A DNA stretch of 64,000 bases, from positions 362,383-426,382 of the forward strand of contig JAUIBF010000001.1 of the NCBI GenBank assembly GCA_030428125.1, read 5' to 3'. Shown here piece after piece: positions 6,476-62,494 of the stretch. The notes under the pieces are model-generated. The model searched no databases, had not been told where the DNA came from, and worked only from the letters and a program-made list of their open reading frames with translations. Position 1 is the stretch's first letter. Each line of letters starts with the position of its first letter. The stretch is from a bacterium (GTDB lineage: Bacteria; Patescibacteriota; Saccharimonadia; Saccharimonadales; SZUA-47). The position numbers and the translations under genes were made by a program.

Positions 6476-9400
6476 ATGGCGGATAATAATAGCTTTAGCG
6501 CAAAAGATTTTGTGCATTTACATAATCATACTCATTACAGCTTGCTGGACGGCTTGCAGAAGATTAAGCCCATGATCTCGCATGTTAAAGAGCTGGGTAT
6601 GGAAGCTGTTGCTATGACTGATCACGGAACAATGTCCGGGGTAATTGAATTTTACAAAGAGGCAGGTGAACAAGATGTAAAGCCGGTTATCGGCATGGAG
6701 ACATACATTGCCTCCCGAAAACATACCGACAAGGAGCCGGGCAAGGACAAGCTGAATTTTCACTTAATACTGATAGCCATGAACGAGACAGGCTATAAGA
6801 ATTTGATGCGCCTCAGCACTATAGCGAATTTAGACGGTTATTATTATCGACCCAGAATTGACCATGAGCTGCTAGAGAAGTATAACGAGGGCTTAATTGT
6901 GCTATCAGGCTGTATTGGTGGTGAGGTTGGAGATGCACTGCGTCAGAATCAGTATGACCAAGCCGTAGAAATTGCAAAATGGTACAAAAAAATATTCGGT
7001 GATAGGTATTATTTAGAGCTACAAGATCATGGCCACCCAGACCATCCACACAAGTGGGATGAACAAGTCGCAGTAAATAAACAGTTGATAGAACTCTCAG
7101 AACACCTGGACATCTCACCTGTTGTAACTTGTGACGCGCACTATCTCAAAAAAGAGGACCAGGAAGCTCATGAAATACTGCTATGTGTGCAGACCGGATC
7201 TTTCCTGGACGAGGAAAAAAGGATGAGCCTCAAGGAATTCGAGTTGTTTGTCGCAGACCCCGTTGAAATTAACAAGCGATGGAAAGATACGTTGCCAGAA
7301 GCTATTACTAACACAAAAAAGATTGCAGATCGCTGCAAAATTGAAATAGAACTAGGTAAAATCTTAATTCCTAAGTTCCCACTACCTAAAGGCGTCACTG
7401 AAAAATCATATCTAGATGAATGTGTTTACCGAGGGCTCATAAAAAAATACGGTGATGACGGGCCTTCAAAACAAACAAATAAACTAAAAGTTTCTGATGC
7501 TAAGAAGCTGCTCCCTAAAGAAGTTCTAGAGCGAGCACAATTTGAATTGCAGGTTGTTGATCAAATGGGCTTCAACGGCTACTTCCTTATTATTGCTGAT
7601 TTTATGGACTGGGGTAAGGCTCAGGGAATCGTGTTCGGACCAGGAAGAGGTAGTGCGGCTGGATCAATCATTGCCTATGCGCTCGGCATAACAGAGCTAG
7701 ACCCTCTTGAGTACGACCTTCTTTTTGAACGTTTTTTGAATCCCGACAGGATAAGTATGCCGGATATCGATATAGATATTCAGGATTCACGTCGTGACGA
7801 AGTAATTCAGTATTGTGTAGACAAGTACGGCAGCGATAGAGTTGCCAACATAGTAACATTCGGTAAGATGGCTGCTCGTAATGCAGTAAGAGATGTATCA
7901 AGGGTTTTGAGGGTTCCGTACGGCGAAGCGGATAGGTTAGCGAAAATGATTCCTCCACCAATCCAGGGTAGACACATTCCACTAGCAGCTTCGCTAAAAG
8001 AGAATAAAGATTTGGCTAACGAATATGAAAACAATGAGATTGCTAAAAAAGTATTCGACCTTGCTACAAAACTAGAAGGAACTATTAGAAGTCATGGAGT
8101 CCATGCAGCCGGTGTGGTGATTGCTCCGGATGATATCGTGAACTTTGTACCACTAGAAAAAGCTCAGAAAGGGGTTGTCTCGACACAGTACTCCATGAAT
8201 CCGGTAGAAGAACTCGGATTGCTTAAGATGGACTTTTTAGGCCTATCTAATCTTACGATTATTAATAATGCTTTGAGAATTATAAAAAAAGTCTACAACA
8301 AAGAAATTGATATCAATACTGTGCCACTTGATGACAAAAAGACTTATGAGCTACTACAAAGAGGTGAAACTACTGGGATATTTCAGTTTGAATCTTCAGG
8401 GATGAAACGGTACTTAAAAGAGCTAAAGCCCACAGAGTTCAATGATTTAATTGCCATGGGTGCTTTATATCGCCCTGGTCCGTTGACTGCGGGGCTAACG
8501 GATAGCTTCGTTAAGCGAAAAAATGGCCTGGAAGAAGTTTCTTATGTTCACGAGAAGTTTAAGGGTGCTCTAGGTTCTACATTCGGGGTTTTAGTCTACC
8601 AAGAGCAGGTTATGCGTATTTCCAGAGATGTTTGTGGCTTCTCTGGTGGTGATGCCGACACATTGCGTAAGGCAATAGGAAAGAAAAAACGCGATGTGAT
8701 GATAAAAATGAAGAAGCAGTTCATTGAGGGTGGAGAAAAGCACGGTGGTGTCCCGAGAGCTGTAATGGAGAAATTCTGGGAAGATTTAATGGGCTTTGCC
8801 GATTATGCATTCAACAAATCGCATTCGTCATGTTACGGATTAATTTCTTACCAGACTGCATACCTAAAAGCGCACTATCCAGCTGCATTCATGGCTGCAC
8901 TAATGACTAGTGATTATGATGATACGGAACGACTGACTATTGAAATGAATGAATGTCAACACATGGGAATCTCAGTACTGCCACCTGATATAAACGAATC
9001 ATTTGTAGAATTTGCTATTGTTCCGGGTAAAGATGAAATACGTTTCGGGATGAGTGCGATAAAAAATGTCGGTGTGGGAGCAGTAGAGGAAATATTGGCC
9101 GAACGAAAATCAGGTCCTTTCGTAAGTCTAGAGGATTTCTTTAACAGAGTAAGCTCAAGATCCGTAAACCGAAAAACTATTGAAAGTTTGATTAAAACAG
9201 GTGCTTTTGACAAGTTTGGTACCAGGTCTCTTCTGCTAAACAATATCGATGCAATGATTTCATATTCCCAGAAAAGACAGAAAGAAAAAGAAAGTGGTCA
9301 AGTAGATTTATTCGGGGGCTCAGGTGATGAGGCCACCGTTACAACAGAAATAACTCTTGGGCCTGAAGATACTAAGTATACAGAATCAGATTACTTGCAA

Positions 9401-10096
9401 TGGGAGAGAGAATTGATGGGATTGTATTTGTCAGATCATCCGTTGTCGAATTTTGAAGTATATCTACGAGAGAAAACTTACCCCTTGAAGTCAATAACCA
9501 AAGAGCATGACTCCAAGAAAGCTAAGGTTGGAGGAATAGTAAACACAGTAAGGGTCATACAAACCAAAAAAGGCGATAACATGGCGTTTGTCGGTATTAG
9601 TGATAGTACCGGAGAAATAGAGTTGTTGCTGTTCCCGGCAACATACGAGCAAACAGCATGGCTTTGGGAAGTCGACAAAGTAGTTTATGTGGAAGGAAGC
9701 GTGAACGCAAAAGATAGAGATGGGCAGTTAATCGATGACGTTAAGGTAAATGTTTCTACAGCAAGGGAGGTTTTACCTGAGGAAGCGAAGGCTTACAAAG
9801 AAAAGGGCAAAACTCTAAAGCCTTTAGGAGAAGTTTCTACGAAAAAACTAGTAAAGAATAAGCCTCCAAAGCTCGATAGAATTTTTATCAGGCTAATGTC
9901 GACCGACAATACTGAACAGCTAACTTCACTGAAGTCACATATAGATAGCTATCCTGGTGAAAGTGAGGTGGTGTTAGTGGTGGGGCCGGTAGATTCTAAA
10001 CAGGCCATACGTGTTCCCGATAGGACTAGTAGAGATGACGAAAGCGTTGATGAGCTAGTTAAGTTGTTTGGCCCAGAGAACGTTAAGCTGAGCTAA
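6476..10096 (+). CDS. dnaE: DNA polymerase III alpha subunit
   Basis: 1206 aa with PHP domain HLHNHTHYSLLDG, Pol III alpha core motifs (GPGRGSAAGS, PDIDID) and a C-terminal OB-like region. TATAAT (6461-6466) lies 9 nt upstream of the ATG. Confidence 0.95.
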   Translation: MADNNSFSAKDFVHLHNHTHYSLLDGLQKIKPMISHVKELGMEAVAMTDHGTMSGVIEFYKEAGEQDVKPVIGMETYIASRKHTDKEPGKDKLNFHLILIAMNETGYKNLMRLSTIANLDGYYYRPRIDHELLEKYNEGLIVLSGCIGGEVGDALRQNQYDQAVEIAKWYKKIFGDRYYLELQDHGHPDHPHKWDEQVAVNKQLIELSEHLDISPVVTCDAHYLKKEDQEAHEILLCVQTGSFLDEEKRMSLKEFELFVADPVEINKRWKDTLPEAITNTKKIADRCKIEIELGKILIPKFPLPKGVTEKSYLDECVYRGLIKKYGDDGPSKQTNKLKVSDAKKLLPKEVLERAQFELQVVDQMGFNGYFLIIADFMDWGKAQGIVFGPGRGSAAGSIIAYALGITELDPLEYDLLFERFLNPDRISMPDIDIDIQDSRRDEVIQYCVDKYGSDRVANIVTFGKMAARNAVRDVSRVLRVPYGEADRLAKMIPPPIQGRHIPLAASLKENKDLANEYENNEIAKKVFDLATKLEGTIRSHGVHAAGVVIAPDDIVNFVPLEKAQKGVVSTQYSMNPVEELGLLKMDFLGLSNLTIINNALRIIKKVYNKEIDINTVPLDDKKTYELLQRGETTGIFQFESSGMKRYLKELKPTEFNDLIAMGALYRPGPLTAGLTDSFVKRKNGLEEVSYVHEKFKGALGSTFGVLVYQEQVMRISRDVCGFSGGDADTLRKAIGKKKRDVMIKMKKQFIEGGEKHGGVPRAVMEKFWEDLMGFADYAFNKSHSSCYGLISYQTAYLKAHYPAAFMAALMTSDYDDTERLTIEMNECQHMGISVLPPDINESFVEFAIVPGKDEIRFGMSAIKNVGVGAVEEILAERKSGPFVSLEDFFNRVSSRSVNRKTIESLIKTGAFDKFGTRSLLLNNIDAMISYSQKRQKEKESGQVDLFGGSGDEATVTTEITLGPEDTKYTESDYLQWERELMGLYLSDHPLSNFEVYLREKTYPLKSITKEHDSKKAKVGGIVNTVRVIQTKKGDNMAFVGISDSTGEIELLLFPATYEQTAWLWEVDKVVYVEGSVNAKDRDGQLIDDVKVNVSTAREVLPEEAKAYKEKGKTLKPLGEVSTKKLVKNKPPKLDRIFIRLMSTDNTEQLTSLKSHIDSYPGESEVVLVVGPVDSKQAIRVPDRTSRDDESVDELVKLFGPENVKLS

Positions 10097-17282: not shown

Positions 17283-19845
17283 ACCACTTTAGAGCGACTT
17301 CGGAATCTCGCTTTCGCCAGTCACAATTCGTTTCAATCATTTCAACTCCTTGATTGTAAGAACGCTCCAGCATCGGTTCCATGTTTGCTTCAAAAAATTT
17401 CTTAAACTCAGCCAAATACTCTTCGTCAGCAAAGTTACGAGCAGCATAAATAGGCATACGTGAGAAGCTTAAATCTGTGCCATTTGTTTCTTTAAGCCAC
17501 TTCCAGTTTTCTTTAAGCCACTTCCAAGTTTCTGCCCGTGCATATCTATTCATAAAACTATAGGCTATCCAATATGCGACATCTTGAGTTCTAATTGTGT
17601 CAGATTTTATTAAATCAAAAACTTTTTTGTGAATATTAGGTTGCTCAAAACTACACATAGCAGCCGTCAACGATAGCTTTTCGTCGCTAGACTTACTATT
17701 TTCATAGATGTTCAGTAGTTCCTTAAACTCTTTTTCATCCCCGTGACGAGCAGCTGTTGTATAAACGATGCCTCTCATATCAGGATTAATGTGGTTCTTG
17801 CCTGAAATCTTATCCTTGTAAAGTTCTAGGGCTTTTTTTACCGCATCATCCTCGTCAGCTCCAGCTGCCACCCCAATAACTAACGGTCTAAGTAATGAGT
17901 CCAAATGAGATTCATTTTCTACCTCATCCCACCCCAACCTTGCAGACTGCTTGTCGACAAGTTTATGTATGAAAGGTTTCATCGCTTCGCGCAGCGAGTT
18001 ATCTAGGTCATTTACTGATAACGTGCTACGAATGGACCCAACTGAGCCGGCAATTATTTCCCAGACGGATAAACTGTCTTCCTCAGAATAATTTAATAGC
18101 AAGTCTAGGTATTCAGAAACAGGTTGATAACCAGCTTTTGTAGCTTCAATACTATCTGCAAGAAGGCCCATCCTGTCAATGTCATCGAATTTACCTGATT
18201 TTAATGCGTTAATTTGCTTTGTTTGAATATCGTGCGAGTAATTGACGCGATAGAATCCAGTTTGGCTACGATTTAGTTTCAGAGTTCTATCCTTGCCAGA
18301 AAAAGGTACGTTTTCGCTAGGTTTACTTACAGTTTGTCTATCGAGTCCATTGGTAAGAAGTGGAATCGGCCAGATAGTCTTGTCTGAACGAGCTTTAGAT
18401 TCTGGGTTGGTAACAAATCTCTTCTGAGTAATCTTAAGGTGGTCATTATTTTCCTCAACCTCCAACAGAGGGAAGCCACTCGCAGAAGTCCAAGCGTGCA
18501 TAAATTCTTTGACAGGTTTTTTCGTAACATCTTCAAGAGCCTGCCACAAATCAACGGTGTCAGTATTTTTGTATGCGTGAGTTTTTAGGTAGTGCCGCAA
18601 TCCGTCTCTGAATCCGTCTGGTCCCAGGTAATCATGGAGCATATGTATTACGCTTGCGCCCTTTTGATAGCTGATAGCATCAAATATTGTTCTGATTTCG
18701 TCAGGGTGTTTTACTTCTACTTCGATTGGGTGCGTGTACTCTAGGGCATCAAGCTTCAATGCTAACTGCTGTTCGTCTACTACAAATTGTGTCCACAGAT
18801 GCCAATCCGGGAAAAGTTTATCGACAGCAAGATACTCCATCCAGCTAGCGAATCCTTCGTTTAACCACAAGTCAGTCCACCAGCGCATTGTTACCAGATT
18901 GCCGAACCATTGGTGAGTTAATTCATGCGCTACAACCAGAGCCACCCACTGCTTTGTGCTTTTAGACGTTTGCTCCGGGTTAAATAGTAGAGCTTGTTCT
19001 CTGAACGTAATTAAGCCCCAGTTTTCCATAGCTCCACTAGCAAAATCAGGTAATGCAACAAAGTCGCATTTTTCTAAAGGGAATGGGATATCATAGTAGT
19101 CCTCGTAGAAGTCCATGCATTTTGCTGCAACATCTAACGCAAACTCGGTATTCTCTATTTGGTCAGTAGTAGCGAACGTTCGGATCAATACTCCACTTTT
19201 ACTTTTTGTCTCTTTAGATTCTATATCTCCGACTACAAAAGCCAGAAGGTAGGTGCTCATTATTGGAGTTTTGGCGAATGTTGTAATAGTTTTCATCCCT
19301 GTAGTTTTCTCATTAACCGAAGATGTATTACTAAGCGCAACTTCGTCTTTAGAGTGCGTAAGTGTAAATTCAAACGTAGCCTTGGCTTCAGGTTCATCGA
19401 CACAGGGGAAAGCTTCGCGAGCATGATGGCTTTCGAATTGTGTGGCAATGATTTTCTTTGTTTCATCGCCTACTTTAAATTTACTAGGGTAAACACCGTC
19501 CATATTGTCGGTAATTTTGCCAGAGAATTCTAGCTCGATCTTATATTCGCCAGGATATACTGTTTCGTCGAAATGGAATCTTACTTCGTCGAGGCTATTT
19601 TGAATAACAGATCTACTAATCTTTAATTCTCTTGGACCTGACTTTTTGTCGAGTTTCGTTACTTTGGGGTTGGTGATTTTCAAGCCCTTTTGATGAAGTG
19701 TAATCCGCTCTGAGGGTTTGCCGGTTTTAGACCCATCAATCACCACCGAACCAGAGAAAGAGCTCTTGTCTTTGGAAATTTCAAAATTAATATTGTAGTT
19801 TGTCGGAGCAAATTGCTCATATAGTCTCGTTACCTTTTTAGCCAT
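17266..19845 (-). CDS. pepN: aminopeptidase N (M1 family)
   Basis: 859 aa with the GAMENWG exopeptidase motif and HELTHQWFGNLVT...WLNEGFA zinc site. Confidence 0.9.
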   Translation of the reverse strand: MAKKVTRLYEQFAPTNYNINFEISKDKSSFSGSVVIDGSKTGKPSERITLHQKGLKITNPKVTKLDKKSGPRELKISRSVIQNSLDEVRFHFDETVYPGEYKIELEFSGKITDNMDGVYPSKFKVGDETKKIIATQFESHHAREAFPCVDEPEAKATFEFTLTHSKDEVALSNTSSVNEKTTGMKTITTFAKTPIMSTYLLAFVVGDIESKETKSKSGVLIRTFATTDQIENTEFALDVAAKCMDFYEDYYDIPFPLEKCDFVALPDFASGAMENWGLITFREQALLFNPEQTSKSTKQWVALVVAHELTHQWFGNLVTMRWWTDLWLNEGFASWMEYLAVDKLFPDWHLWTQFVVDEQQLALKLDALEYTHPIEVEVKHPDEIRTIFDAISYQKGASVIHMLHDYLGPDGFRDGLRHYLKTHAYKNTDTVDLWQALEDVTKKPVKEFMHAWTSASGFPLLEVEENNDHLKITQKRFVTNPESKARSDKTIWPIPLLTNGLDRQTVSKPSENVPFSGKDRTLKLNRSQTGFYRVNYSHDIQTKQINALKSGKFDDIDRMGLLADSIEATKAGYQPVSEYLDLLLNYSEEDSLSVWEIIAGSVGSIRSTLSVNDLDNSLREAMKPFIHKLVDKQSARLGWDEVENESHLDSLLRPLVIGVAAGADEDDAVKKALELYKDKISGKNHINPDMRGIVYTTAARHGDEKEFKELLNIYENSKSSDEKLSLTAAMCSFEQPNIHKKVFDLIKSDTIRTQDVAYWIAYSFMNRYARAETWKWLKENWKWLKETNGTDLSFSRMPIYAARNFADEEYLAEFKKFFEANMEPMLERSYNQGVEMIETNCDWRKRDSEVALKWFRDQA

Positions 19846-52120: not shown

Positions 52121-52434
52121 TGGAACGATTTCAGGATTCAGACACAGGCTCTAGAATCGAGGAAGCTTTAACAGATCAACCTGGAGATGCACCGTCGTCA
52201 AAATATTTCAGAATAGCAAGGATGCTTGCACAAGGTGTAAGCGTTTCAGTAGAAGCTGGATTTAACTTTGGCTCTATCGTATCAACTGACGACGAGTTAG
52301 CTGCAGAGCTAAATGCAACTGAGCATTTAGCATCAAGATTAGCAACAAGGGCATCCTACGCAGATTTCGCAAATGGAAACGATGATCAACTAAAAAACTT
52401 AATTGGAGCAATTAGAGGAAACAATGGCAGTTAA
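52120..52434 (+). CDS. hypothetical 104-aa protein inserted between rpsG and fusA
   Basis: The ATG overlaps the rpsG stop (TAATG at 52118-52122) and the 3' end overlaps the fusA start by 11 nt. GNN-rich codons, acidic. No family recognised. Confidence 0.5.
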
Positions 52435-54511
52435 GAAAACACCACTAGGAAAAATTAGAAACATTGGTATTATCGCGCACATCGATGCAGGTAAGACTAC
52501 AACAACAGAAGGTATCTTGTACCGAACTGGACTCAGCCACAAAATTGGTGCAGTTCATGATGGTGAAACAACTACCGACTGGATGGAACAAGAACGAGAA
52601 CGCGGTATCACAATCGTATCCGCGGCCGTTACTTGTTATTGGAAAGATCACCAAATCAACATCATTGATACACCGGGACACATCGACTTTACAGTAGAGG
52701 TAGAACGTTCACTTCGTGTGCTTGATGGTGCTGTCGTAGTATTCGACGGTAAAATGGGTGTTGAATCACAGTCTGAAACAGTGTGGCGACAAGCTGATAA
52801 GTACGGTGTACCTCGTATCTGTTTCATTAACAAAATCAACCAAACTGGTGGTGATTTCTACAAATCACTTGAGAGCATCCACAACCGACTTTCAAAAGCT
52901 GCTTTTCCTATTCACTTGCCAATTGGCTTTGAACAAAGCATCAACGGTGTAGTCGACCTTGTTGACATGAAAGCCTACAACTACAAAGAATTTGCCGACA
53001 AAGAGCTAGTTGAAAGTGAAATTCCTGAAGATATGAAGGAAAAAGTAGCACGGTACAGAAGCTTGCTAATCGAAAACGCTGTAGCAGAAGACGAAGAATA
53101 CCTAGAAAAATACCTTGAAAAAGGTGAAGAAGGATTAACAGAAGACGAAATCCGACACGCTATCCGTTCAGCAGTTCTTGGTGGTAAATTCTACGCTGTA
53201 ACTGGTGGTGATGGCCGTGGTGTTATCGTTGAAAAAGTTCTAGACCTAATTAACGACTTAATGCCAAGTCCTGAAGACAGGGGTTCAACTTGGGGTAAGG
53301 ACGCAAAATCTGGCGACGAAATCGAACGAAAACCTTCCGATTCAGAACCTATGAGTGGACTAGCTTTCAAGATTACAACCGACCCATTTGTTGGTAAGCT
53401 TGCTTATTTCCGTGTTTATTCAGGAACACTTAAAGCTGGTTCATATGTAATGAACAGCTCAACCGGTAATAAAGAGCGTATCGGACGTATCGTTCGTATG
53501 CAGGCTGATAAGCGAGAAGAAATTGATGAAGTACAAGCTGGTGATATTGCTGCAATCGTCGGACTGAAAGCAACTACAACCGGAAATACACTTTGTGATT
53601 TAGATAAGCAGATTATATTAGAAAGCATCGACTTCCCAGAACCTCCAGTATCGATTGCTATCGAACCAAATACAAAGAGCGACCAAGAAAAAATGTCTAT
53701 TGCCTTGCAACGTCTTGCTGAAGAAGATCCAACTTTCCGAGTAAAGGTTGATGATGAAACAGGTCAAACTGTTATTTCAGGAATGGGTGAGCTTCACTTG
53801 GAAATCCTAGTAGACAGAATGAAGCGAGAATTTAAGGTTGAAGCTAACATCGGAGCACCTCAGGTTGCATACCGAGAAACTATCCGAAAAGACGGAGTAG
53901 AAATCCAAGGAAAATTCATCAAGCAGTCTGGTGGTCGTGGTCAATACGGTGATGTATGGCTAAGACTATCACAAAATACTGCCGGTGAAGGATTCGAATT
54001 CATTAACTCTATCAAGGGCGGTGTAGTTCCTCAGGAATACATCAAGCCTGTTGAGCAAGGAATCATCGAAGCAATGAACAACGGTGTTCTTGCTGGATAT
54101 CCGGTAGTAGACATCAAAGCAGAACTTTACGATGGTTCATACCACGATGTTGACTCAAGCGAAGCAGCCTTTAAGGTAGCTGGATCAATGGCGCTTAAAG
54201 ACGGCGTTAAAGCTGCAAAGCCTGTAATCCTAGAGCCTGTTATGAAAGTTGTTGTTGTAACTCCGGAAGAATTCATGGGTGACTGTATTGGGGATCTTAA
54301 CGCTAAGCGTGGACGAGTAGAATCTATGGAAGATTTGTCTGCTGGTGTTAAAGAAATTACTGCCTTCGTACCTCTAGGTGAAATGTTTGGATACACAACT
54401 AACCTTCGTTCAATGACTCAAGGTCGAGCAAGCTCAAGCATGGAGCTCGATCATTACGCTGATGTTCCTAACAACGTTGCAGAAGCAATCATTGCCAACA
54501 ACTCAAAGTAA
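52424..54511 (+). CDS. fusA: elongation factor G
   Basis: Start set at [29 protein letters not shown], preceded by AGAGGA; the track ORF begins at 52403. Full EF-G domain set. Confidence 0.95.
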
Positions 54512-54523
54512 AGGGTTTATACC

Positions 54524-55090
54524 ATGCCAAATGTCAGTGAACATACACTAGAGCACTTAGCGCTAGATGTTGAAAACTATTTTGACGCAGTGGCTAGAAA
54601 CCATGGTCATAATGCAGTTTGGTACCTTTCTCCAATCGGGGAGCGTATGATAGACCTGACTCAAGACCCAGATGACAGTAGTCACATGCCTTACGTATAC
54701 AATGATGTTACTGCCCAAATAGGAGCGGAAATTTTTGGAGAGTATAACGGCGTTCACTACACAGTTAATGATGATCTGACGGCTCTAGCAAAGTTGCCCG
54801 TGAGAGTAAGCCTAGGGCTTTTGCCACCCCTCGAAGAATTTCGCCTACCAATTGATGAAGCAGCCGAACAACTGGCAGCAATAATACCCGCAGTAAGGGA
54901 TGGTGCGGCGCTCATAAAGTCAGCGTACAGTGTCGATACTCATATTAAATCTATGGCTACTGCTGTAGAAAGAGTTAGCGTTACAGAAAGTAGACGAAGC
55001 TTAACTAGGATACCGTTCTTTGGTAAGTTAGTTCCCACAGAGAACGTTCCAACCTATGAAGCAAAAGTAGCACAACTACTTGATAGTTAG
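54524..55090 (+). CDS. hypothetical 188-aa protein inserted between fusA and tuf
   Basis: The ATG lies 12 nt after the fusA stop. The -35 of the tuf promoter lies in its last codons. No family recognised. Confidence 0.5.
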   Translation: MPNVSEHTLEHLALDVENYFDAVARNHGHNAVWYLSPIGERMIDLTQDPDDSSHMPYVYNDVTAQIGAEIFGEYNGVHYTVNDDLTALAKLPVRVSLGLLPPLEEFRLPIDEAAEQLAAIIPAVRDGAALIKSAYSVDTHIKSMATAVERVSVTESRRSLTRIPFFGKLVPTENVPTYEAKVAQLLDS

Positions 55091-55109
55091 TAGCAGAATT
55101 TGTTACAAT
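55080..55109 (+). promoter_or_regulatory. tuf promoter
   Basis: TTGATA-N18-TACAAT with an extended-10 TGt. Confidence 0.6.
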
Positions 55110-55216
55110 AACACTTGTAACTCGTGAGAGGGCTTTTGTTGATGCGCTCAACAAATATGGATCACGAAACTACGTAAAATAATTCATAAAACCCTTTAAA
55201 ATCTACAGGAGATAAA

Positions 55217-56401
<1,185 letters not shown>

Positions 56402-56423
56402 CCTAAAAACTAATACCAAACAG

Positions 56424-56457
56424 AAGGGCTCTTGGTATTACACTGAGAGCTCTTTTT
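56424..56457 (+). terminator. intrinsic terminator after tuf
   Basis: Stem AAGGGCTCT/AGAGCTCTT (one mismatch), 13-nt loop, T5. Confidence 0.6.
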
Positions 56458-56472
56458 AATGCGAAAGAAAAT

Positions 56473-56868
56473 ATGACAGACACTATAAACAACGGACTTA
56501 GTCCAGATTCTTATGAACACGTTAGCCCTATTATCGGAGCTATTCAAGATACTAGTGATAGATTAAAAAGCTTTTGGTGGAACGTTGGTTCAGGAAACAG
56601 GCCTAAGCCACGACTAGAACGTAGATTAGCCCCTCTAAGGGAAGGTATAGCAATGATGATTCTTGATCATCGAATGCCGGACGAGGTTTTTACGGAGTTA
56701 TCTAGACTTAATGGTGCATATAACACCGAACTTGATGCTTTCTCGGCCCATAGTTACGACTACTATGAACTGGGCGTAAGAACGTCTGCAAACCAGCTAC
56801 ATATGGTAATTGGCGCAGAAGCTACTAAGCCATTTGTTCTGGTTGGCGAACCAGTAATTGTTTCTTGA
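56473..56868 (+). CDS. hypothetical 131-aa protein (tuf-rpsJ insert, gene 1)
   Basis: No family recognised. Its own terminator follows. Confidence 0.5.
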   Translation: MTDTINNGLSPDSYEHVSPIIGAIQDTSDRLKSFWWNVGSGNRPKPRLERRLAPLREGIAMMILDHRMPDEVFTELSRLNGAYNTELDAFSAHSYDYYELGVRTSANQLHMVIGAEATKPFVLVGEPVIVS

Positions 56869-56903
56869 TTATTTAATCTAGGGTATGGCTAGACAATATT
56901 GAG

Positions 56904-56932
56904 ACTCGGGATGAAATATTCCCGAGTTTTTT
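56904..56932 (+). terminator. intrinsic terminator
   Basis: Perfect 8-bp stem ACTCGGGA/TCCCGAGT, 8-nt loop, T6. Confidence 0.8.
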
Positions 56933-56947
56933 GTTACACTTTACAAG

Positions 56948-57349
56948 ATGAGTTTTTCATACACAAAGACAGAAACAGCGATTTTTCAAGCCGCTGAACG
57001 TGCTGAATCTAAGGTTCGTGTTTTGGATTCTGGCATCGTTAGCTGGCCTGCAGAAGATTGGAGTGTAGTACTGTATCCTATAAAATATTTCGAAGGTTTT
57101 GAGGATTATGGTGCTCTAACAGCTGCAAAGGCAGATGAAGGTGTCGTAGAGTCAAAAGTGTTTGTATTTACAGCACTAAAGCTAGGCATGTGTGTATCAT
57201 TAGTTAGAGACGAAACTATACCAATGACTTCAGACTCAAATATCTTAGCCGATGCGATAACTAGCACTATGGATTTGCCGGGCTACTCTGCCCCCAACCA
57301 GGGAGACATGTCAGACTTTGAAACTTTTCTAGGTTACGCACTAATTTAA
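56948..57349 (+). CDS. hypothetical 133-aa protein (tuf-rpsJ insert, gene 2)
   Basis: TGtTACACT(56932-56940)-N7-ATG, a leaderless-type start. Acidic. No family recognised. Confidence 0.5.
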   Translation: MSFSYTKTETAIFQAAERAESKVRVLDSGIVSWPAEDWSVVLYPIKYFEGFEDYGALTAAKADEGVVESKVFVFTALKLGMCVSLVRDETIPMTSDSNILADAITSTMDLPGYSAPNQGDMSDFETFLGYALI

Positions 57350-57486
57350 TTTTTCATAAAACTTGGCTGATCTAGCGAACTTGAAATATACATCACTAAT
57401 CACATGCTAAACAAATAATCAAATATGTGATATTGTATTCTTTATGACAATGGAAAAAATACAGAAGGTTAGTTGACACGAATAGC

Positions 57487-58950
57487 GTGTTTACACAGGA
57501 GGTAGGCGTACTATTACCTTCAGTTATCGAATATGCACAGTTGAGTATTGAAGCCACAGATGCAAACGGTTTTTTCGTACATTCGGGCATGGGTCCAAAA
57601 ACAAGTAAAAGAGTAGCTGACAACTCTCAGAGAAGAAAACTTACTGATGATGAAGTAGATTTAATGAGGTTTTCGAATGCTTTATTGTTTCAAGTAAGAG
57701 ATCCAGAAGAGTTTGTAGAAATTAACCTAAGGGCTGTAGGCACTGCGGTTGATAACTTTTCTGAAGACAATGGCTTATCTAGACTTGGTAGACAAGAAAC
57801 TCTAGACACAGTTGAGGCAACTCTTAGAAATGGCTTAATTTATATGCTGCCCAAGGTGGTGCTGGTGAGCGATGTACACGAACAGTACAAAGCACTAGAT
57901 AATGATGAAAAAACTCATCTAAAAGGTGTGTTTGCTCATCCTGTAGCACAGGTAGGCTCAAGCGACTCACATACTTATGGTTCGCTTGCAACAACGCTGG
58001 CGTTTCCCGGACAAGACGGTGAGGCACCTATAGATCCAATCATTGCTTCTGTTAAAGAAGGTGAATTAGACGCAGAGCTTTATCGATATCTCATTCGCTA
58101 TCCAGAACTATTTCAGAAGTATCCTTCACTTGTGGCCATTACTAAATTTGCCGTATCAGTACTAAATGGTGCTCAAGATGAGCTGGAAGCTAGTGTTGGT
58201 AGTCAAGCAGAACGACTAGTATCCGATAAGCACGGTGATTTAACAGGACCAGCACATGAAGAATTAATTAAGCTACGAAATACTACACTCAACATGATTA
58301 CTAGCAGTATTCGCCTCGCTCGTTTAACTGGAGCAGGGTTACATTACACACCAGAACAACTAGAAGAATTACTTGCCTTAAGCCATGAATCTGAGATGTA
58401 CAGAATCAATTCAAGACTTGGTTTGGTTAGAGACACTAGGAGTGCGGCAGTTAAAAAGAAAAGAATACAGGCAACAAAAACAGCAGTAGCGAAGGGCCTG
58501 GATCCCGACATGACTTCTGAAGTAAAAAAAGTTATATCAAGACAAGCTGGAGCGCTAACAAATACAGTTAGCAGAGAATCGGAATATGGAGATGAGCCGG
58601 TAAGATCATTTATAGCAGATTTTGTTGGTAAGCGACCTAATGCAGAAGAAATAATCAAACAACTTGTAAAGTCAATAAAACACGTTAGTGCAGCAGACTT
58701 ATCTGGCGGTAATGTTAGAGGCTTAAGGACAATCAAAAATTGTGATAGAAAAATTGAAATTGACGGAGTAACACATACTGTCTTTGAGCTAAAGCCCAGG
58801 GACATATCAGATTTAGGTGCCGGTAAATCAAGAAATATAAATGATATCCGTATGATCGTCGCTATTAACGGAGATGAATCTTTGGTAATTTTAGGCATCG
58901 TAAAGAGAGATAAACTTTACGACAAAACCAAAACGCTTGGGTTGAGATAA
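57487..58950 (+). CDS. hypothetical 487-aa protein with a possible RelE/ParE-superfamily C-terminal domain (tuf-rpsJ insert, gene 3)
   Basis: GTG start is uncertain. The C-terminus, VFELKPRD...DIRMIVAINGDESLVILGIVKRDKLYDKT, resembles the yElR...yRiiY.i.gd.ivil.i..R pattern of RelE/ParE/HigB-like toxins. The N-terminal roughly 390 aa are unassigned. Confidence 0.55.
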   Translation: MFTQEVGVLLPSVIEYAQLSIEATDANGFFVHSGMGPKTSKRVADNSQRRKLTDDEVDLMRFSNALLFQVRDPEEFVEINLRAVGTAVDNFSEDNGLSRLGRQETLDTVEATLRNGLIYMLPKVVLVSDVHEQYKALDNDEKTHLKGVFAHPVAQVGSSDSHTYGSLATTLAFPGQDGEAPIDPIIASVKEGELDAELYRYLIRYPELFQKYPSLVAITKFAVSVLNGAQDELEASVGSQAERLVSDKHGDLTGPAHEELIKLRNTTLNMITSSIRLARLTGAGLHYTPEQLEELLALSHESEMYRINSRLGLVRDTRSAAVKKKRIQATKTAVAKGLDPDMTSEVKKVISRQAGALTNTVSRESEYGDEPVRSFIADFVGKRPNAEEIIKQLVKSIKHVSAADLSGGNVRGLRTIKNCDRKIEIDGVTHTVFELKPRDISDLGAGKSRNINDIRMIVAINGDESLVILGIVKRDKLYDKTKTLGLR

Positions 58951-59166
58951 ATTAAAACTATTGCTTAAAGCGCTAGAAAGAGATTATCCGGGTTCAAGCG
59001 CAGCTTTTACTTGTGAACTTCCACCTAATGCTTTACGAAAGACCATCAGTATTGTAGAATAATAGTACAAATTAATTGTGCGTGACTAAAAGTCATCCCT
59101 GGAAACACCACTAAATGCCCAAGGAAGATGTTACACCACATAAATATCAAATAGGAGATATTTATT

Positions 59167-59550
59167 ATGGCTGAAGCCAAAAAACCAGCTGCTAAAAAAG
59201 CGGCAACAAAGAAAACAGCAGCGCCTGCTGCACCAGCAAAGCCTGGAATGCAACGAATTCGTATTCGTCTGAAAGCCTATGATCATAAAGTAATCGACCA
59301 GTCTGCAAAACAGATTGTTGATACAGCACTGCGTAACGGTGCTAAGATTGCTGGCCCAATTCCACTACCTACACGTAAGAGTACTTTTACTGTCGTTAAG
59401 AGCCCTCACGTTTACAAAAAAGGTCGTGAACAGTTCGAAATGCGTGTCCATAAGCGACTTATCGACGTTCTAGAACCAACTCCAAAGACTATCGATTCAT
59501 TAATGAATTTATCTTTGCCAGCCGGTTGTGACGCTGAAATAAAAATGTAA
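59167..59550 (+). CDS. rpsJ: 30S ribosomal protein S10 with a Lys/Ala/Pro-rich N-terminal extension
   Basis: AGGAG SD before 59167. The S10 core begins at [19 protein letters not shown] (an internal ATG at 59248 would give a conventional length). Confidence 0.93.
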
Positions 59551-59567
59551 CCATATTAAATTACCTT

Positions 59568-60266
59568 ATGTCCAAGCCTAGAACTGAAACCGGCAGAGTC
59601 CTTAGGACTGCGGGAAATATAGTAAATTCATTTTCAGCCTACAGTAGAACAGAAATTCATGAACATGAAGAAAGTGCTTTAACGAAGCTTGATGCCGAGT
59701 CTGGGAGGTTCATAAGGGAAGTCTTAGAAATGTCAGGTAGATTCGGTAATCCAATGGATGCGGACATTTGCCCTACGGATAGGGTTCGTTCACATATCGA
59801 TCCACACTTAGAATTCATGAGACCATCTTTAGCTAAAGTATACAAAAAGCTTACGGAAACTATGTACGAGCTGAAGCAGCGTACAATTCCTCGTTTAACT
59901 CCGGGAATACTCAATTTGGTAAGTGAAGTTAATAAGGCAGGTGAGGTTACGCGCGAAGAGCTAGAATCAATGGCGAGAGAGTATTTCGATGATGAAGGTA
60001 TCGAAAGGCATTTATTCTTTATGGGATACACTGTCGGGGGAAAGACTTACGAACACGCCGAAACAGTACAAAAGCCCGAAACCTTTAGTGAGGCACTAGC
60101 GCTAGGCTTAGATAGGATTTGGACTCCTATTTTTCTCGAACGGGTCCTTCAGACTAGTAACTACATTGTTTCATCGCTGGGCGCGTGTTCACTGAAAGTG
60201 ACAATGGATTGTTTTGAAGCTAGTCCTCAAGAGCCAATAGCTGGCAGTATGCTACAATACCGCTAA
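59568..60266 (+). CDS. hypothetical 232-aa protein (rpsJ-rplC insert, gene 1)
   Basis: The ATG lies 17 nt after the rpsJ stop. No family recognised. Confidence 0.5.
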   Translation: MSKPRTETGRVLRTAGNIVNSFSAYSRTEIHEHEESALTKLDAESGRFIREVLEMSGRFGNPMDADICPTDRVRSHIDPHLEFMRPSLAKVYKKLTETMYELKQRTIPRLTPGILNLVSEVNKAGEVTREELESMAREYFDDEGIERHLFFMGYTVGGKTYEHAETVQKPETFSEALALGLDRIWTPIFLERVLQTSNYIVSSLGACSLKVTMDCFEASPQEPIAGSMLQYR

Positions 60267-60544
60267 TGGCTAAGAAAAAACAGACACGAAAAAACAAAGC
60301 ACTTATTGAGCCGGATTCGTTATTTTTCCTAAAATTAGTAGTTCTACTAATCATCGGTTCACAATGGATATTTATAAATAGCGGCGACAGTTGGCAGATT
60401 CCTATCCCAATTGGTTTTATATTGGGATTGGTTTTAGTTACTCACGAGCACTTCCAGATAGACAGAAAGATTGAGTACGCTCTGCTGCTTATAGCGTCGT
60501 TCATAGCCTTTTGGCTACCAGTCGGTCTAGTTATACAGCTATAG
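60266..60544 (+). CDS. small membrane protein (rpsJ-rplC insert, gene 2)
   Basis: 92 aa. TAATG overlap with the upstream ORF. Basic N-terminus then about three hydrophobic segments. Confidence 0.55.
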   Translation: MAKKKQTRKNKALIEPDSLFFLKLVVLLIIGSQWIFINSGDSWQIPIPIGFILGLVLVTHEHFQIDRKIEYALLLIASFIAFWLPVGLVIQL

Positions 60545-60580
60545 CTTGCAAAATAATGTGCTAAGTGTAATTGTGTACCT

Positions 60581-60955
60581 ATGAGTAGACTTACTAGAGT
60601 GGTTGCAACATCTTTGCTTTTAGCACCTTCGGCGTGTGGTCAAGATAGTTCTCTCGAGATTGAAGCACGGGATCCTTTCGCGCTAAATACGGCTATGGTT
60701 AAAGAAATAGAAGACAGAGACTATGACTGGAGCTCTGACTATATAGAAGGCTTCGCTGTTGGGGCTGCCTCAAGGTGTATAGATCTCGCCAGAGAGCGAC
60801 ACTACGCCATCGGAGATCAATACTTAGAAGAGGATATATCGGTTGAAGACAGAGAAGATTATAGTAGTGGTATAGAAAACTCGGCTGCAGTAGGAGAGTC
60901 ATTGATTGTGCATTTGTGTTCGGAGGCATTGGAAAGAATCAAACACACAGTGTAG
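60581..60955 (+). CDS. putative secreted protein/lipoprotein (rpsJ-rplC insert, gene 3)
   Basis: 124 aa. Layout TTGCAA-N16-TAATTG-N7-ATG. Signal-peptide-like MSRLTRVVATSLLLAPSAC, with Cys at a weak lipobox. Confidence 0.5.
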   Translation: MSRLTRVVATSLLLAPSACGQDSSLEIEARDPFALNTAMVKEIEDRDYDWSSDYIEGFAVGAASRCIDLARERHYAIGDQYLEEDISVEDREDYSSGIENSAAVGESLIVHLCSEALERIKHTV

Positions 60956-61037
60956 TAGAATAGTCAACCACAGTAGTGAGCACTACGTGCTACTACATGG
61001 CAGGCATATTGACACTAAGTGTAGTAATATAGTCAAC
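60949..61037 (+). repeat. 20-nt direct repeat pair flanking a hairpin, upstream of the rplC promoter
   Basis: AGTGTAGTAGAATAGTCAAC (60949-60968) and AGTGTAGTAATATAGTCAAC (61018-61037) match at 18/20. A 10-bp hairpin lies at 60973-60996. The inverted repeat TAGTCAA-CGTA-TTGACTA lies at 61030-61047. Confidence 0.6.
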
Positions 61038-61040
61038 GTA

Positions 61041-61070
61041 TTGACTAAAGTTAATACTTTGTGCTAAGAT
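61041..61070 (+). promoter_or_regulatory. promoter for rplC-rplD-rplW-rplB-rpsS
   Basis: TTGACT-N18-TAAGAT with an extended-10 TGc. Confidence 0.55.
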
Positions 61071-61232
61071 GTAAGTCAATCGCAAAACTTGGTGAATCAG
61101 AAAGTCTGATAAAAAAGAAACTCCTGACACCAAGAATTTTTATGTCTAAGAGACATGCAAAAATGCCCGCGGTGCCGGTATCACTAACAACTAAATATGA
61201 AAGGTACAGGAGTAAAACTCTGTAACCACACT

Positions 61233-61853
61233 ATGAAAGCGCTCATAACGAGAAAACTTGGCATGACTAGTACCATCGAAGAAGACGGTACAGTTACTGC
61301 TGTTACATTGCTTTCCGCTAGTCCATGCGTAATTACGCAGATCAAAGATGCTGAAAAAGACGGTTATCAGTCTATTCAGGTTGGCTTTGAAGAAACTAAG
61401 CGGGTAAATAAGGCACAAGAAAACCACTTTAAGAAGTCTAAGGCTATGCCGAAGATTATTCGCGAATTCCGCACAGAAGGCTTAGAGCTTCCAGAAGACC
61501 TCGCCGTTGGATCAAAACTAACAGCAGAGGTCTTTTCAGTTGGAGACGTAGTCGACGTAACCGGAACTAGCAAAGGTAAAGGTTTCACATCTACAATCAA
61601 ACGACACAACTTCCACCGTCAGCGAAAGACTCATGGTGGTAAAGGAAATACACGTCAGCCTGGTTCTATCGGTTCTATGTACCCGCAGAAGATTTTCAAA
61701 GGTAAGAAAATGGCCGGTCAGTCTGGTGCTGAACGAGTAACAGTAAAGAACCTAAAAGTTGCTATCGTAGATACCGATAAAGGTGTTTTGGCTGTAACTG
61801 GTGCAGTTCCTGGACCGCGAAAAAGTATTGTTCTAGTGAAAGGAGCTAAATAA
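61233..61853 (+). CDS. rplC: 50S ribosomal protein L3
   Basis: Start set at MKALITRKLGMTS, a typical L3 N-terminus; the track ORF begins at 61197. Confidence 0.95.
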   Translation: MKALITRKLGMTSTIEEDGTVTAVTLLSASPCVITQIKDAEKDGYQSIQVGFEETKRVNKAQENHFKKSKAMPKIIREFRTEGLELPEDLAVGSKLTAEVFSVGDVVDVTGTSKGKGFTSTIKRHNFHRQRKTHGGKGNTRQPGSIGSMYPQKIFKGKKMAGQSGAERVTVKNLKVAIVDTDKGVLAVTGAVPGPRKSIVLVKGAK

Positions 61854-62494
61854 TGGCTGTTGCAACCTATACAAAGTCTGGCTCTAAAGCTAGCGCACCT
61901 GCAAAACTGGATAAAGCAGTTTTCGATGTAGAGATTAAGAATCACGAGTTAGTTAAGCAAGCATATACTGCATACTTAGCTAACGGACGTGAAAACCTAA
62001 GCAAGACACTGCGACGTGGTGAAGTACGTGGTGGTGGTAAGAAGCCTTGGAAACAAAAAGGTACTGGACGTGCACGTTTCGGTTCCATCCGTGTTCCAAT
62101 CTGGCGTGGTGGTGGTATTACTTTTGGTCCATTGGGCGAAGAGAACTATTCTAAGAAACTTACAAAAGCTGCTAAACAAACAGCTATCCGCCAAGCTCTA
62201 ACTATGAATAAAGACAATGTTAAAGTTGTAGATTCTGTCGAAGCTAAAGATGGCAAGACAGCTGAATTAGCGAAACTTCTTAAGAAAGTTGAAGCTAAGG
62301 GAAACGTCCTTGTAGCTGTAGAGACCAAAGACGAAACTGTTGTTCGTGCTAGTAACAATCTAGAAAACGTAAAGCTAGTTAACGCGTCTTACCTAAACGT
62401 TTACGACATCATGAATGCTGACACGATTGTAATTAGCAAAAAAGGCCTAGACTTGGTTCACGAGTGGCTAGGTGTTAAGAAGGAGGCTAAATAA
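61853..62494 (+). CDS. rplD: 50S ribosomal protein L4
   Basis: 213 aa. TAATG overlap with rplC. Contains GGGKKPWKQKGTGRAR. Confidence 0.96.
   Translation: MAVATYTKSGSKASAPAKLDKAVFDVEIKNHELVKQAYTAYLANGRENLSKTLRRGEVRGGGKKPWKQKGTGRARFGSIRVPIWRGGGITFGPLGEENYSKKLTKAAKQTAIRQALTMNKDNVKVVDSVEAKDGKTAELAKLLKKVEAKGNVLVAVETKDETVVRASNNLENVKLVNASYLNVYDIMNADTIVISKKGLDLVHEWLGVKKEAK

Follow-up and report, generated by a model that had tools for sequence, protein, structure and literature searches.

The tuf-rpsJ gap of Saccharibacteria: variable gene contents, a positionally conserved protein family and a structured rpsJ leader RNA

The slots (hotspots) of bacterial pangenomes vary in length and content between two highly conserved core genes, and the gap between tuf and rpsJ in Saccharibacteria is alike in this respect and in its miscellaneous, orphan-rich cargo. 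It differs from such slots in lying inside the ribosomal str/S10 cluster of an epibiont whose genome is reduced (<1 Mb), in carrying cargo that is almost entirely co-oriented and accompanied by no integrases, tRNAs or repeats, and in holding one cargo family (ORF487, see below) at a conserved position. A second point of reference is offered by the leaders of ribosomal protein operons, among which the E. coli S10 leader is an autoregulatory 5' UTR RNA bound by L4. The RNA that we describe for rpsJ, with which the S10 operon opens, likewise lies after the promoter and before the Shine-Dalgarno sequence and is conserved with covariation across the lineage, although this Saccharibacteria leader matches no Rfam family in sequence or structure. 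Working expression parts have already been made of the TM7x promoters of tuf and rpsJ and of its tuf terminator, and a TM7x rpsJ promoter fragment drove expression of the resistance gene hph (Wang et al. 2023, PMC10633639).

The window (the whole 64,000-nt stretch of DNA that was analysed) belongs to a Saccharibacteria (TM7) genome and holds three plus-strand ORFs between tuf and rpsJ, here called ORF131, ORF133 and ORF487, which are separated by spacers of 79 nt (ORF131 to ORF133) and 137 nt (ORF133 to ORF487). A preliminary description had taken them for a self-contained cassette, insulated in transcription from both flanking genes and perhaps a toxin-related or conflict system. The sequence features on which it drew (the three ORFs, two terminators, TGTTACACT, an inverted repeat and the rpsJ hexamers) were all found at the locus. 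Comparison with related loci leads us to conclude that the three are probably separate, lineage-specific accessory genes in a gap with variable contents, and not one module.

55217-56401, plus strand: tuf (EF-Tu), the 5' boundary gene, with 86-94% identity to the EF-Tu proteins encoded at 65 related Saccharibacteria loci
56422-56458, plus strand: intrinsic terminator of tuf (hairpin and U-run), -18.5 kcal/mol, z -4.25, with 0 of 200 shuffles as stable
56473-56868, plus strand: ORF131, 131 aa, pI 5.3, orphan
56901-56932, plus strand: intrinsic terminator after ORF131, 11-bp stem and U-run, z about -4.6 (-4.57), with 0 of 200 shuffles as stable
56932-56940, plus strand: TGTTACACT, an extended -10-like motif 7 nt 5' of the ORF133 ATG
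56948-57349, plus strand: ORF133, 133 aa, pI 4.2 (acidic), orphan
57399-57431, no strand assigned: inverted repeat ATCACAT-N19-ATGTGAT in the 137-nt spacer between ORF133 and ORF487
57487-58950, plus strand: ORF487, 487 aa, GTG start
59167-59550, plus strand: rpsJ (S10), the 3' boundary gene, PF00338, with the Shine-Dalgarno sequence AGGAG at 59153-59157

Contents and boundaries of the gap

Comparison loci were fetched through S10 similarity (n = 80, almost all of them from Saccharibacteria or Saccharimonadales), and the content and length of the gap were compared in the 66 related loci in which both flanks could be examined. The gap ranged from -1 to 2673 nt, and an all-against-all phmmer comparison revealed that its plus-strand ORFs are mostly singletons. 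Besides many orphans, this cargo included proteins with Pfam matches to Bac_transf (a sugar transferase), Voltage_CLC, Patatin, HD_4, HTH with DUF5753, DnaJ and Excalibur. The three genes of our locus travel together in no other locus, as ORF131 and ORF133 were absent from all 92 others, including nine in which an ORF487 homolog occupies the slot without them. The preliminary description had itself named a failure of the three genes to co-occur elsewhere as speaking against an independent module, and the self-contained cassette has to be given up on this ground. We suggest that comparative evidence is needed before 'cassettes' in the ribosomal clusters of Patescibacteria are taken for functional modules.

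The idea of insulation from both flanking genes fared better on some sides than on others. On the tuf side it stands, the terminator there being a real intrinsic one, and rpsJ does possess its own promoter and leader, whereas the three-gene unit is not closed on its 3' side because folding revealed no convincing terminator after ORF133 or ORF487 (the segment 58951-59060 folds with z +0.45). The elements after tuf and ORF131 are both stable GC-rich hairpins followed by a U-run at the 3' end of a gene, as defines intrinsic terminators, and 49 of 74 related loci have a hairpin with T-run equivalent to that of tuf. Both the terminator of tuf and the rpsJ promoter with its leader are lineage-wide marks of two adjacent operons and not cassette parts.

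The promoter-like starts that had been proposed are present as motifs, but sigma-70-like sites are no commoner in the region than in shuffles (13 found versus 15.7 expected), and it is conservation of position in relatives that backs the rpsJ site. TGTTACACT is possibly a leaderless start signal for ORF133; TGTTACA is not enriched in the window (9 copies versus 10.8 expected), and five of the nine copies lie just upstream of genes. The inverted repeat at 57399-57431 is probably due to chance, a perfect 7-nt inverted repeat being found in 28% of spacer shuffles and in 14% of 137-nt segments of the window, and the 137-nt spacer folds with z -0.15. A role of the repeat as an operator is unsupported at this chance-level frequency.

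All three ORFs show an in-frame codon usage signal and a GC1>GC2>GC3 order like those of host genes. For ORF131 and ORF133 we nonetheless weighed the rather unlikely reading that they are not genes: they would be ORFs present by chance in a long stretch of decaying intergenic DNA, such as relics of former cargo. It would account for the fact that neither has a homolog in the 92 related loci or in viral or metagenome scans (remote ones could lie beyond the reach of the search), that each forms a singleton cluster and that no Shine-Dalgarno sequence precedes ORF133. It accords poorly with frame-specific codon usage in both (in-frame log-odds of +0.20 for ORF131, versus -0.5 to -1.2 in the other frames, and of +0.29 for ORF133), with the strong dedicated terminator 33 nt 3' of ORF131, and with the opposite strand across the cassette, where the sole competing ORF is one of 53 aa within ORF133.

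Very improbable, and already largely refuted through the lack of co-occurrence, is that the three genes constitute one toxin-antitoxin or conflict module in which ORF487 is a RelE-like toxin and ORF131 and/or ORF133 the antitoxin or an accessory. Such a module could be read into three adjacent genes on the same strand, of which ORF133 is strongly acidic and ORF487 has a basic C-terminal domain with a weak Foldseek resemblance to HigB. However, the nine ORF487 homologs lack either small gene, the strong terminator cuts ORF131 off from ORF133 and ORF487, and the spacers are of 79 and 137 nt in place of the tight gene coupling that is usual in toxin-antitoxin operons. Moreover, searches of Pfam, NCBIfam, PADLOC and PHROGs returned no match for ORF131, ORF133, ORF487 or the flanking orphans, and the toxin-related label finds no backing there. 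Least credible of all is that the genes came in recently on a mobile element or are what is left of a prophage, which would explain contents unlike those of all related loci examined, but is at odds with a GC content and codon use equal to those of host and flanks and with the absence of direct or inverted terminal repeats, of an integrase, transposase or PHROG match, of a nearby tRNA and of relatives in viral contigs.

On the reading as separate accessory genes, the str operon of this lineage ends at tuf with its intrinsic terminator and the S10 operon restarts at rpsJ with its own promoter and structured leader, and the gap between the operons would tolerate cargo whose content turns over fast between related species. 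ORF131 would then be a monocistronic orphan with its own terminator and ORF133 an acidic orphan. The slot may be permissive because insertion of cargo leaves both operons free of polar effects, and the cargo genes may be dispensable; we conjecture that they are expressed through terminator read-through or from weak promoters of their own. Natural competence has been reported for Saccharibacteria, and one can speculate, purely by reasoning from this, that exchange by recombination is aided by competence together with the highly conserved flanks. In S. epibionticum the tuf-rpsJ gap measures 613 nt and is without an annotated gene, and Tn-seq found SEML1_0475 (a hypothetical gene at the rpsJ-rplC junction) as well as SEML1_0478 and SEML1_0479 (next to tuf on its far side) to be non-essential (PMC10633639). 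Permissive slots that collect orphan genes would be found at the tuf-rpsJ junction and, it seems, also between fusA and tuf and between rpsJ and rplC.

The ORF487 family and readings of its function

Exhaustive phmmer searching with ORF487 recovered eight remote homologs (E 2e-17 to 8e-6), while a k-mer-indexed homolog search returned only ORF487 itself, both with the single sequence and with a profile, a scan of genome contigs gave no match, and viral and metagenome scans revealed no relatives. The family falls into nine clusters with pairwise identities of 17-37%, compared to 86-94% for EF-Tu of related loci, and its distribution in the lineage is patchy (on a rough neighbour-joining tree of three proteins). 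Wherever the flanks are visible, each homolog follows tuf, precedes rpsJ or does both, in the same orientation as these genes; at one homolog locus (L091) the downstream rpsJ was confirmed by a match of the leader covariance model described below. In most homolog loci the tuf terminator lies between tuf and the homolog. Members are absent from all 66 related loci with both flanks examinable. No homology was detected between the family and other gap ORFs, or among the orphans of the window, even with filters off, and no small partner gene is conserved beside the nine homologs, whose neighbours are tuf, rpsJ or unrelated ORFs. The ORF487 family is small, extremely divergent and restricted to Saccharibacteria, and it keeps its chromosomal position. 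On the basis that this position is kept despite the turnover of other cargo, there could be a functional tie to the translation operons and not a passive residence between them. As for the gene start, AGGAGG at 57497-57502 was rejected as the Shine-Dalgarno sequence of a later start of ORF487, there being no in-frame start codon at a suitable distance.

57487-58491, plus strand: N-terminal part of ORF487 (residues 1-335), acidic and all-helical, net charge -17
58591-58950, plus strand: C-terminal α/β domain of ORF487 (residues 369-487), basic, net charge +5, the best-conserved part of the family

An AlphaFold2 model of ORF487 (pLDDT 74.6, pTM 0.60) comprises only helices up to residue 335, and this N-terminal part has no significant fold or sequence match; its net charge in full-length homologs ranges from -5 to -27. 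The C-terminal domain was modelled with higher scores (pLDDT 87, pTM 0.80) and shows an H-H-β5-H topology, four residues that are invariant across the family (G408, G412, P437 and R455) and a Lys/Arg-rich tail. The split into an acidic N-terminal and a basic C-terminal part recurs in all nine family members.

The preliminary description had called the tail of ORF487 RelE-like, and what remains of this is a weak structural resemblance. Foldseek placed the HigB toxin and a BECR-fold CdiA toxin (CdiA-CT, 6CP9) as the highest-probability matches to the C-terminal domain, with TM 0.45-0.48 (about 0.46 for HigB, E >0.2) and E-values that all exceed 0.08 and are non-significant. Conversely, ORF487, its tail and the nine C-terminal domains gave no match to RelE/ParE/HigB families of Pfam (PF05016, PF05015, PF05973 and others) at E up to 10, a profile search against PDB sequences gave no RelE/ParE/HigB match, and hhalign against a RelE profile built from a 35-sequence alignment gave E 0.41 and a probability of 0.1%. 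Scanning tail and body separately yielded no family match, and scanning the nine members one by one yielded nothing recurrent and no PADLOC match. An NCBIfam match to L25/Ctc (E 0.04) was discarded, as it concerns one member only and is not common to the others. The full-length model returned helical-repeat noise only in Foldseek, and the BFVD library of viral structures was uninformative.

With the RelE/ParE/HigB toxins (S. pneumoniae HigB, PDB 6AF3/6AF4; E. coli RelE) the domain shares small size and basic character and, as modelled, an antiparallel sheet that carries two N-terminal helices and leads into a C-terminal one, and hhalign places its last strand and 'KRD' motif on the 'GKRE' of RelE. 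By contrast, it has no significant sequence or profile similarity to them (TM <0.5), no antitoxin gene adjoining ORF487 is conserved, and an 18-residue insertion separates the strands expected to bear K54 and R61 of RelE. Furthermore, RelE-type toxins are stand-alone proteins of ~90 aa, whereas ORF487 joins its domain to an acidic helical region of 335 residues.

A tentative case can be made that ORF487 binds RNA or ribosomes and possibly acts as a self-inhibited RNase; a role outside translation is no less probable. The first form of this idea, an unlikely one, is that ORF487 is a lineage-specific accessory factor of translation or the ribosome, whose basic C-terminal domain and tail would bind rRNA or mRNA and which would be kept at the slot through joint expression or use with the translation machinery. 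The strictly conserved tuf-rpsJ position and strand of members with only ~20% identity, along with the basic domain and its Lys/Arg-rich tail, are consistent with such a factor. Yet it is missing from all 66 of the fully examinable loci, evolves far faster than any ribosomal component and is separated from tuf by the tuf terminator in most homolog loci, and the sole L25/Ctc match is not shared by other members.

The second form is that of a single-gene, self-inhibited RNase in which a C-terminal nuclease of the RelE/BECR fold would be restrained by the fused acidic N-terminal domain, akin to a toxin and antitoxin in one chain. We regard it as quite improbable. The charge split in all nine members, the H-H-β5-H topology with HigB and the CdiA-CT BECR toxin at the top of the fold matches, and the lack of a conserved separate partner gene would fit it, as would a conserved order of Lys, Arg, Arg/Lys and an aromatic residue along the strands that parallels K54, R61, R81 and Y87 of RelE, which is a reading by eye and not a test. 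Against it are the Foldseek scores, the hhalign result and the failure of the nine C-terminal domains to match Pfam RelE/ParE/HigB families as given above.

More speculatively, and in our estimate a long shot, ORF487 might belong to a new class, specific to Saccharibacteria, of self-inhibited RelE/BECR-fold RNases made as a single polypeptide, or of ribosome-binding regulators, and be hard-wired at tuf-rpsJ, with a dose that tracks transcription of the translation operons via read-through of the tuf terminator. If so, ORF487 would be a built-in translation brake for these epibionts, and an arms race, or rapid co-evolution with the ribosome, would lie behind its extreme divergence. As an uncharacterised, positionally conserved family with a possibly RNase-like domain, it is a concrete target now that Saccharibacteria are genetically manipulable.

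The rpsJ promoter and its leader RNA

59032-59060, plus strand: rpsJ promoter TTTACG-N17-TAGAAT, with equivalent hexamers at equal distance from the start codon in three related loci (L009, L011 and L028)
59070-59146, plus strand: structured RNA in the rpsJ 5' leader, covariance-model match of 67.3 bits

The validation of the rpsJ promoter site consists solely in its conserved position in relatives. Downstream of it, an alignment of 23 leader sequences supports 15 base pairs, with 94.8% of cells paired compared to 25-53% when the alignment was slid. The covariation score of 0.391 compares with 0.04-0.10 in the slid controls and was reached by none of 500 shuffles, and seven pairs show double changes. 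The covariance model matched 52 of 89 sources, once per locus and always on the plus strand just upstream of rpsJ. A conserved, covarying structure in the 5' UTR is what characterizes leaders of ribosomal protein genes, and the rpsJ leader has one. Rfam, searched over 54000-62000, gave no match beyond a HOLDH fragment at chance level (E 0.15, 19.6 bits versus a gathering score of 319). We conclude that the rpsJ leader contains a new conserved structured RNA, a well-supported assignment. GATGTTACA in the leader had been considered as a -10 element, and the RNA helix is preferred on account of covariation between the flanking bases and the 5' arm.

The leader RNA provides a handle on the regulation of ribosomal protein synthesis in epibionts with reduced genomes, and one of the expression parts with which the field already works also contains the element. 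Within Saccharibacteria the leader RNA occurs in two structural variants.

The tuf-rpsJ junction as a variable inter-operon slot

The three plus-strand genes between tuf and rpsJ, named ORF131, ORF133 and ORF487 after their lengths in amino acids, are the local content of a hypervariable slot between two operons. The preliminary description, which read them as a self-contained cassette, was mostly accurate in what it observed: the three genes and the promoter-like site of rpsJ are there as described, but the three genes do not form a unit. The interest of the locus is moderate and lies mainly in the ORF487 family and in a new rpsJ leader RNA.

Gene layout of the region (window coordinates)
52403-54511: fusA
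54524-55090: orphan ORF of 188 aa
55217-56401: tuf
56473-56868, plus strand: ORF131
56948-57349, plus strand: ORF133
57487-58950, plus strand: ORF487, with a GTG start
59167-59550: rpsJ
59568-60955: three more non-ribosomal ORFs, between rpsJ and rplC
from 61197: rplC, then rplD, rplW and rplB

Codon log-odds of ORF131, ORF133 and ORF487 were +0.19 to +0.29 in frame versus -0.2 to -1.2 in the five other frames, and all three follow the GC1>GC2>GC3 pattern of tuf and the ribosomal genes in a region of flat GC content. Searches of Pfam, NCBIfam, PADLOC and PHROGs returned no meaningful match for them or for the neighbouring orphans, and the proposed toxin-related or conflict module thus found no backing among known toxin and defence families. 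Every looked-up protein of the window, EF-Tu included, is a singleton at 90% identity; the species has no close sequenced relative. An S10 protein scan of species-representative genomes gave 80 loci, nearly all of them titled Candidatus Saccharibacteria, Saccharimonadales or Saccharimonadia.

Among the 66 related loci in which both genes are visible, the tuf-rpsJ spacing ranged from -1 nt to 2673 nt. An all-against-all comparison of the plus-strand ORFs in these gaps revealed mostly singletons and a few small families of 2-5 members, and none was matched by an HMM of the ORF487 family or of its C-terminal domain, with filters off too. The larger cargo genes with Pfam domains encode a sugar transferase, a CLC channel, a patatin-like phospholipase, an HD-domain protein, an HTH/DUF5753 regulator, a DnaJ-domain protein and an Excalibur-domain membrane protein. 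Southlakia epibionticum has a 613-nt gap with no annotated gene in it (Wang et al. 2023 supplement, PMC10633639). Repeats, tRNA, integrase and phage-like genes were not found in the region, and viral-contig scans were empty.

The junction is a gap from a terminator to a promoter, both of which are seen here, so that insertions would be polar on neither of the two essential operons; on this basis we infer that the junction is permissive. Little DNA in the genome is as conserved as the tuf and rpsJ flanks, and natural competence is established for Saccharibacteria (PMC10633639), so cargo could be exchanged by homologous recombination. The patchiness of the cargo, together with Tn-seq data on analogous genes, suggests that these genes are accessory: in S. 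epibionticum the hypothetical gene SEML1_0475 at the rpsJ-rplC junction is non-essential, as are SEML1_0478 and SEML1_0479, which adjoin tuf on its far side (PMC10633639).

Operon boundaries and the structured rpsJ leader

The hairpins after tuf (z -4.25) and after ORF131 (z -4.57) are far stabler than those of shuffled sequences and each is followed by a U-run, whereas folding against shuffles uncovered no comparable hairpin and U-run 3' of ORF133 or ORF487. In 49 of 74 loci tuf is followed by a hairpin with a T-run, no more than about 60 nt past its stop codon; these include most of the loci with an ORF487 homolog directly behind tuf. In relatives, the region upstream of rpsJ carries TTTACA, TTAACA or TTTACC, N17, then TATAAT, TATGAT or TACAAT, at the same distance from the start codon as TTTACG-N17-TAGAAT in the window; sigma-70-like hexamer pairs as such are not commoner in the region than in shuffled sequence. 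The cargo is thus separated from tuf, and rpsJ starts afresh, but this insulation marks the ordinary border between two operons in the lineage rather than a property of a cassette. Of the terminators ascribed to the cassette, the strong one after ORF131 stands, that of tuf belongs to the flanking operon, and none was seen after ORF133 or ORF487. ORF131 is most likely a stand-alone unit with its own terminator, and ORF133 may start leaderless from the motif TGTTACACT. With no terminator seen behind ORF487, its transcription probably runs on into the region of the rpsJ promoter. The inverted repeat noted in the spacer before ORF487 is present (57399-57431), but 28% of shuffles of that spacer give such a repeat by chance.

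The motif TGTTACA occurs nine times in the window versus 10.8 expected, hence without overall enrichment; five of the nine copies are intergenic, just upstream of genes, and that of tuf is part of an extended -10, TGTTACAAT.

TGTTACA copies upstream of genes
51110, plus strand: upstream of rpsL
55101, plus strand: upstream of tuf
56932, plus strand: upstream of ORF133
59129, plus strand: upstream of rpsJ
19920, minus strand: upstream of the minus-strand gene ending at 19845

Between promoter and start codon of rpsJ lies a structured RNA. The -10 hexamer is followed by AATTAATCGTG, common to relatives, and then by a long irregular hairpin. Its basal helix (P1) varies and covaries, its middle, in which ACUAAAAGUC is paired with GAUGUUA, is invariant, and its upper helix (P2) covaries and bears a variable tip; the Shine-Dalgarno sequence follows about 10-20 nt beyond. 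In a 23-sequence alignment, 94.8% of cells are in standard pairs versus 25-53% in controls with the partner shifted by 1-3 columns, both sides change in 51 cells versus 1-11, and the covariation score is 0.391 versus 0.04-0.10; none of 500 shuffles reached these values. A covariance model built from this alignment matched 52 of 89 sources, each locus with a single copy, always on the plus strand just upstream of rpsJ and including 29 loci outside the model-building set. Rfam has no match for this RNA, a candidate for autoregulation of the S10 operon from its leader.

Structured RNA in the rpsJ 5' leader
Window 59070-59146, plus strand: conserved structured RNA, covariance-model match
L015:9836-9908 and L028:5282-5358: examples of the same RNA in relatives (51 related loci in all)
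L002:4622-4687, L004:3248-3313, L007:6711-6775, L092:11576-11642 and others: second variant

The second variant shares the logic of the basal helix, which by eye covaries here too, and consists of CGAGAACU, a hairpin whose loop UCACUCAUCACU is conserved, and then AGGUUACG; in three loci (L006, L027, L079) about 70 nt are inserted into the hairpin. Wang et al. 2023 (PMC10633639) employed the tuf promoter and terminator and the rpsJ promoter of TM7x as working expression parts in S. epibionticum. The rpsJ fragment in their supplement includes, besides the promoter, a form of the leader element, which we recognize as this second variant.

The ORF487 family

A word-indexed search with ORF487 returned only ORF487 itself, whereas exhaustive phmmer against 1.84 billion representatives recovered eight remote homologs (E 2e-17 to 8e-6; 308-539 aa; 22-25% identity), all eight of which, when looked up, lie in the same place and orientation as in the window. 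The homolog is directly behind tuf in L002, L004, L006 and L007 and upstream of rpsJ in L003, L004/L005, L006, L007, L009/L010 and L092/L093, with an 82-aa ORF intervening before rpsJ in L007 and a minus-strand methyltransferase-like gene in L002; in L091 the contig end truncates the homolog, and the gene downstream of it has the rpsJ leader RNA in front. No locus with an ORF487 homolog carries a homolog of ORF131 or ORF133, and the expected co-occurrence of the three genes was thus never seen. Pairwise identity within the family is 17-37%, compared to 86-94% for EF-Tu and 57-85% for L3 in the same loci; in L009, L3 is 85% identical and the ORF487 homolog only about 20%. ORF487 thus belongs to an uncharacterised, positionally conserved and rapidly evolving family of Saccharibacteria. 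In a rough neighbour-joining tree (S10, L3, EF-Tu) the bearing loci occupy at least three separate positions and have sister taxa without the gene, a patchiness that fits both an old gene repeatedly lost or replaced and exchange between species.

In L092, a 749-aa orphan without Pfam domain (7710-9959) separates tuf from the homolog, so the slot can take further large unique genes next to a family member. Two contigs (L004:1635-3203 and L005:145-1713) encode an identical 522-aa homolog, with five nucleotide differences in the gene, all synonymous, and zero across 2 kb of downstream flank; this is only a hint of purifying selection, the sample being biased because the protein look-up requires exact identity.

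AlphaFold2, given only nine sequences, modelled the whole of ORF487 (pLDDT 74.6, pTM 0.60) as a helical part (residues 1-335), a low-confidence Lys/Arg-rich linker and an α/β domain, which modelled alone (pLDDT 87, pTM 0.80) has the order H-H-β-β-β-β-β-H. Conservation within the family is highest in this C-terminal domain, where G408, G412, P437 and R455 are invariant. The eight full-length members have an acidic N-terminal part (net -5 to -27), and all nine members have a basic C-terminal part (+2 to +8), which in most of them ends in a basic tail.

We consider it likely that ORF487 serves a role unrelated to translation; that it is an RNA- or ribosome-binding accessory factor is doubtful, and a self-inhibited RNase of the RelE/BECR type is more doubtful still. 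The preliminary description saw a RelE-like tail in ORF487, a likeness that is unproven for the family. By eye, a conserved Lys (LKP), Arg (TRxLF) and Arg/Lys (RD), with an aromatic residue some six positions further on, parallel in order K54, R61, R81 and Y87 of RelE, which is a lead rather than proof. In Foldseek searches of the PDB no match was significant (all E above 0.08), those of highest probability being the HigB toxin of S. pneumoniae (6af3/6af4; probability 0.63-0.87, TM 0.45-0.48) and a BECR-fold CdiA-CT of K. pneumoniae (6cp9). Against a 35-sequence alignment built from an E. coli RelE search, the hhalign alignment (E 0.41) was confined to the final strand and the 'KRD' behind it, which fell on 'GKRE' of RelE. 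With E allowed up to 10, the Pfam models of RelE, ParE and HigB matched no C-terminal domain of the nine members, and a PDB profile search was empty; neither sequence nor a partner gene places ORF487 in the RelE/BECR group.

Neighbouring junctions

The fusA-tuf junction looks variable too. The 188-aa orphan begins 13 nt past the fusA stop codon, tightly coupled, and has no homolog in any of the related loci; relatives have other, unrelated genes there, such as a DUF1996 protein and a 210-aa ORF in L006. Between rpsJ and rplC, a 92-aa predicted membrane protein (60266-60544) is conserved, with E down to 1e-39, across about 50 related loci; SEML1_0475 of S. epibionticum has the same position. 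The genes flanking it in the window, ORF232 (59568-60266) and ORF124 (60581-60955), are orphans. S10 of the window has an N-terminal extension of about 27 residues rich in Lys, Ala and Pro (59167-59250) before the conserved core, and many related loci have such an extension, of varying length.
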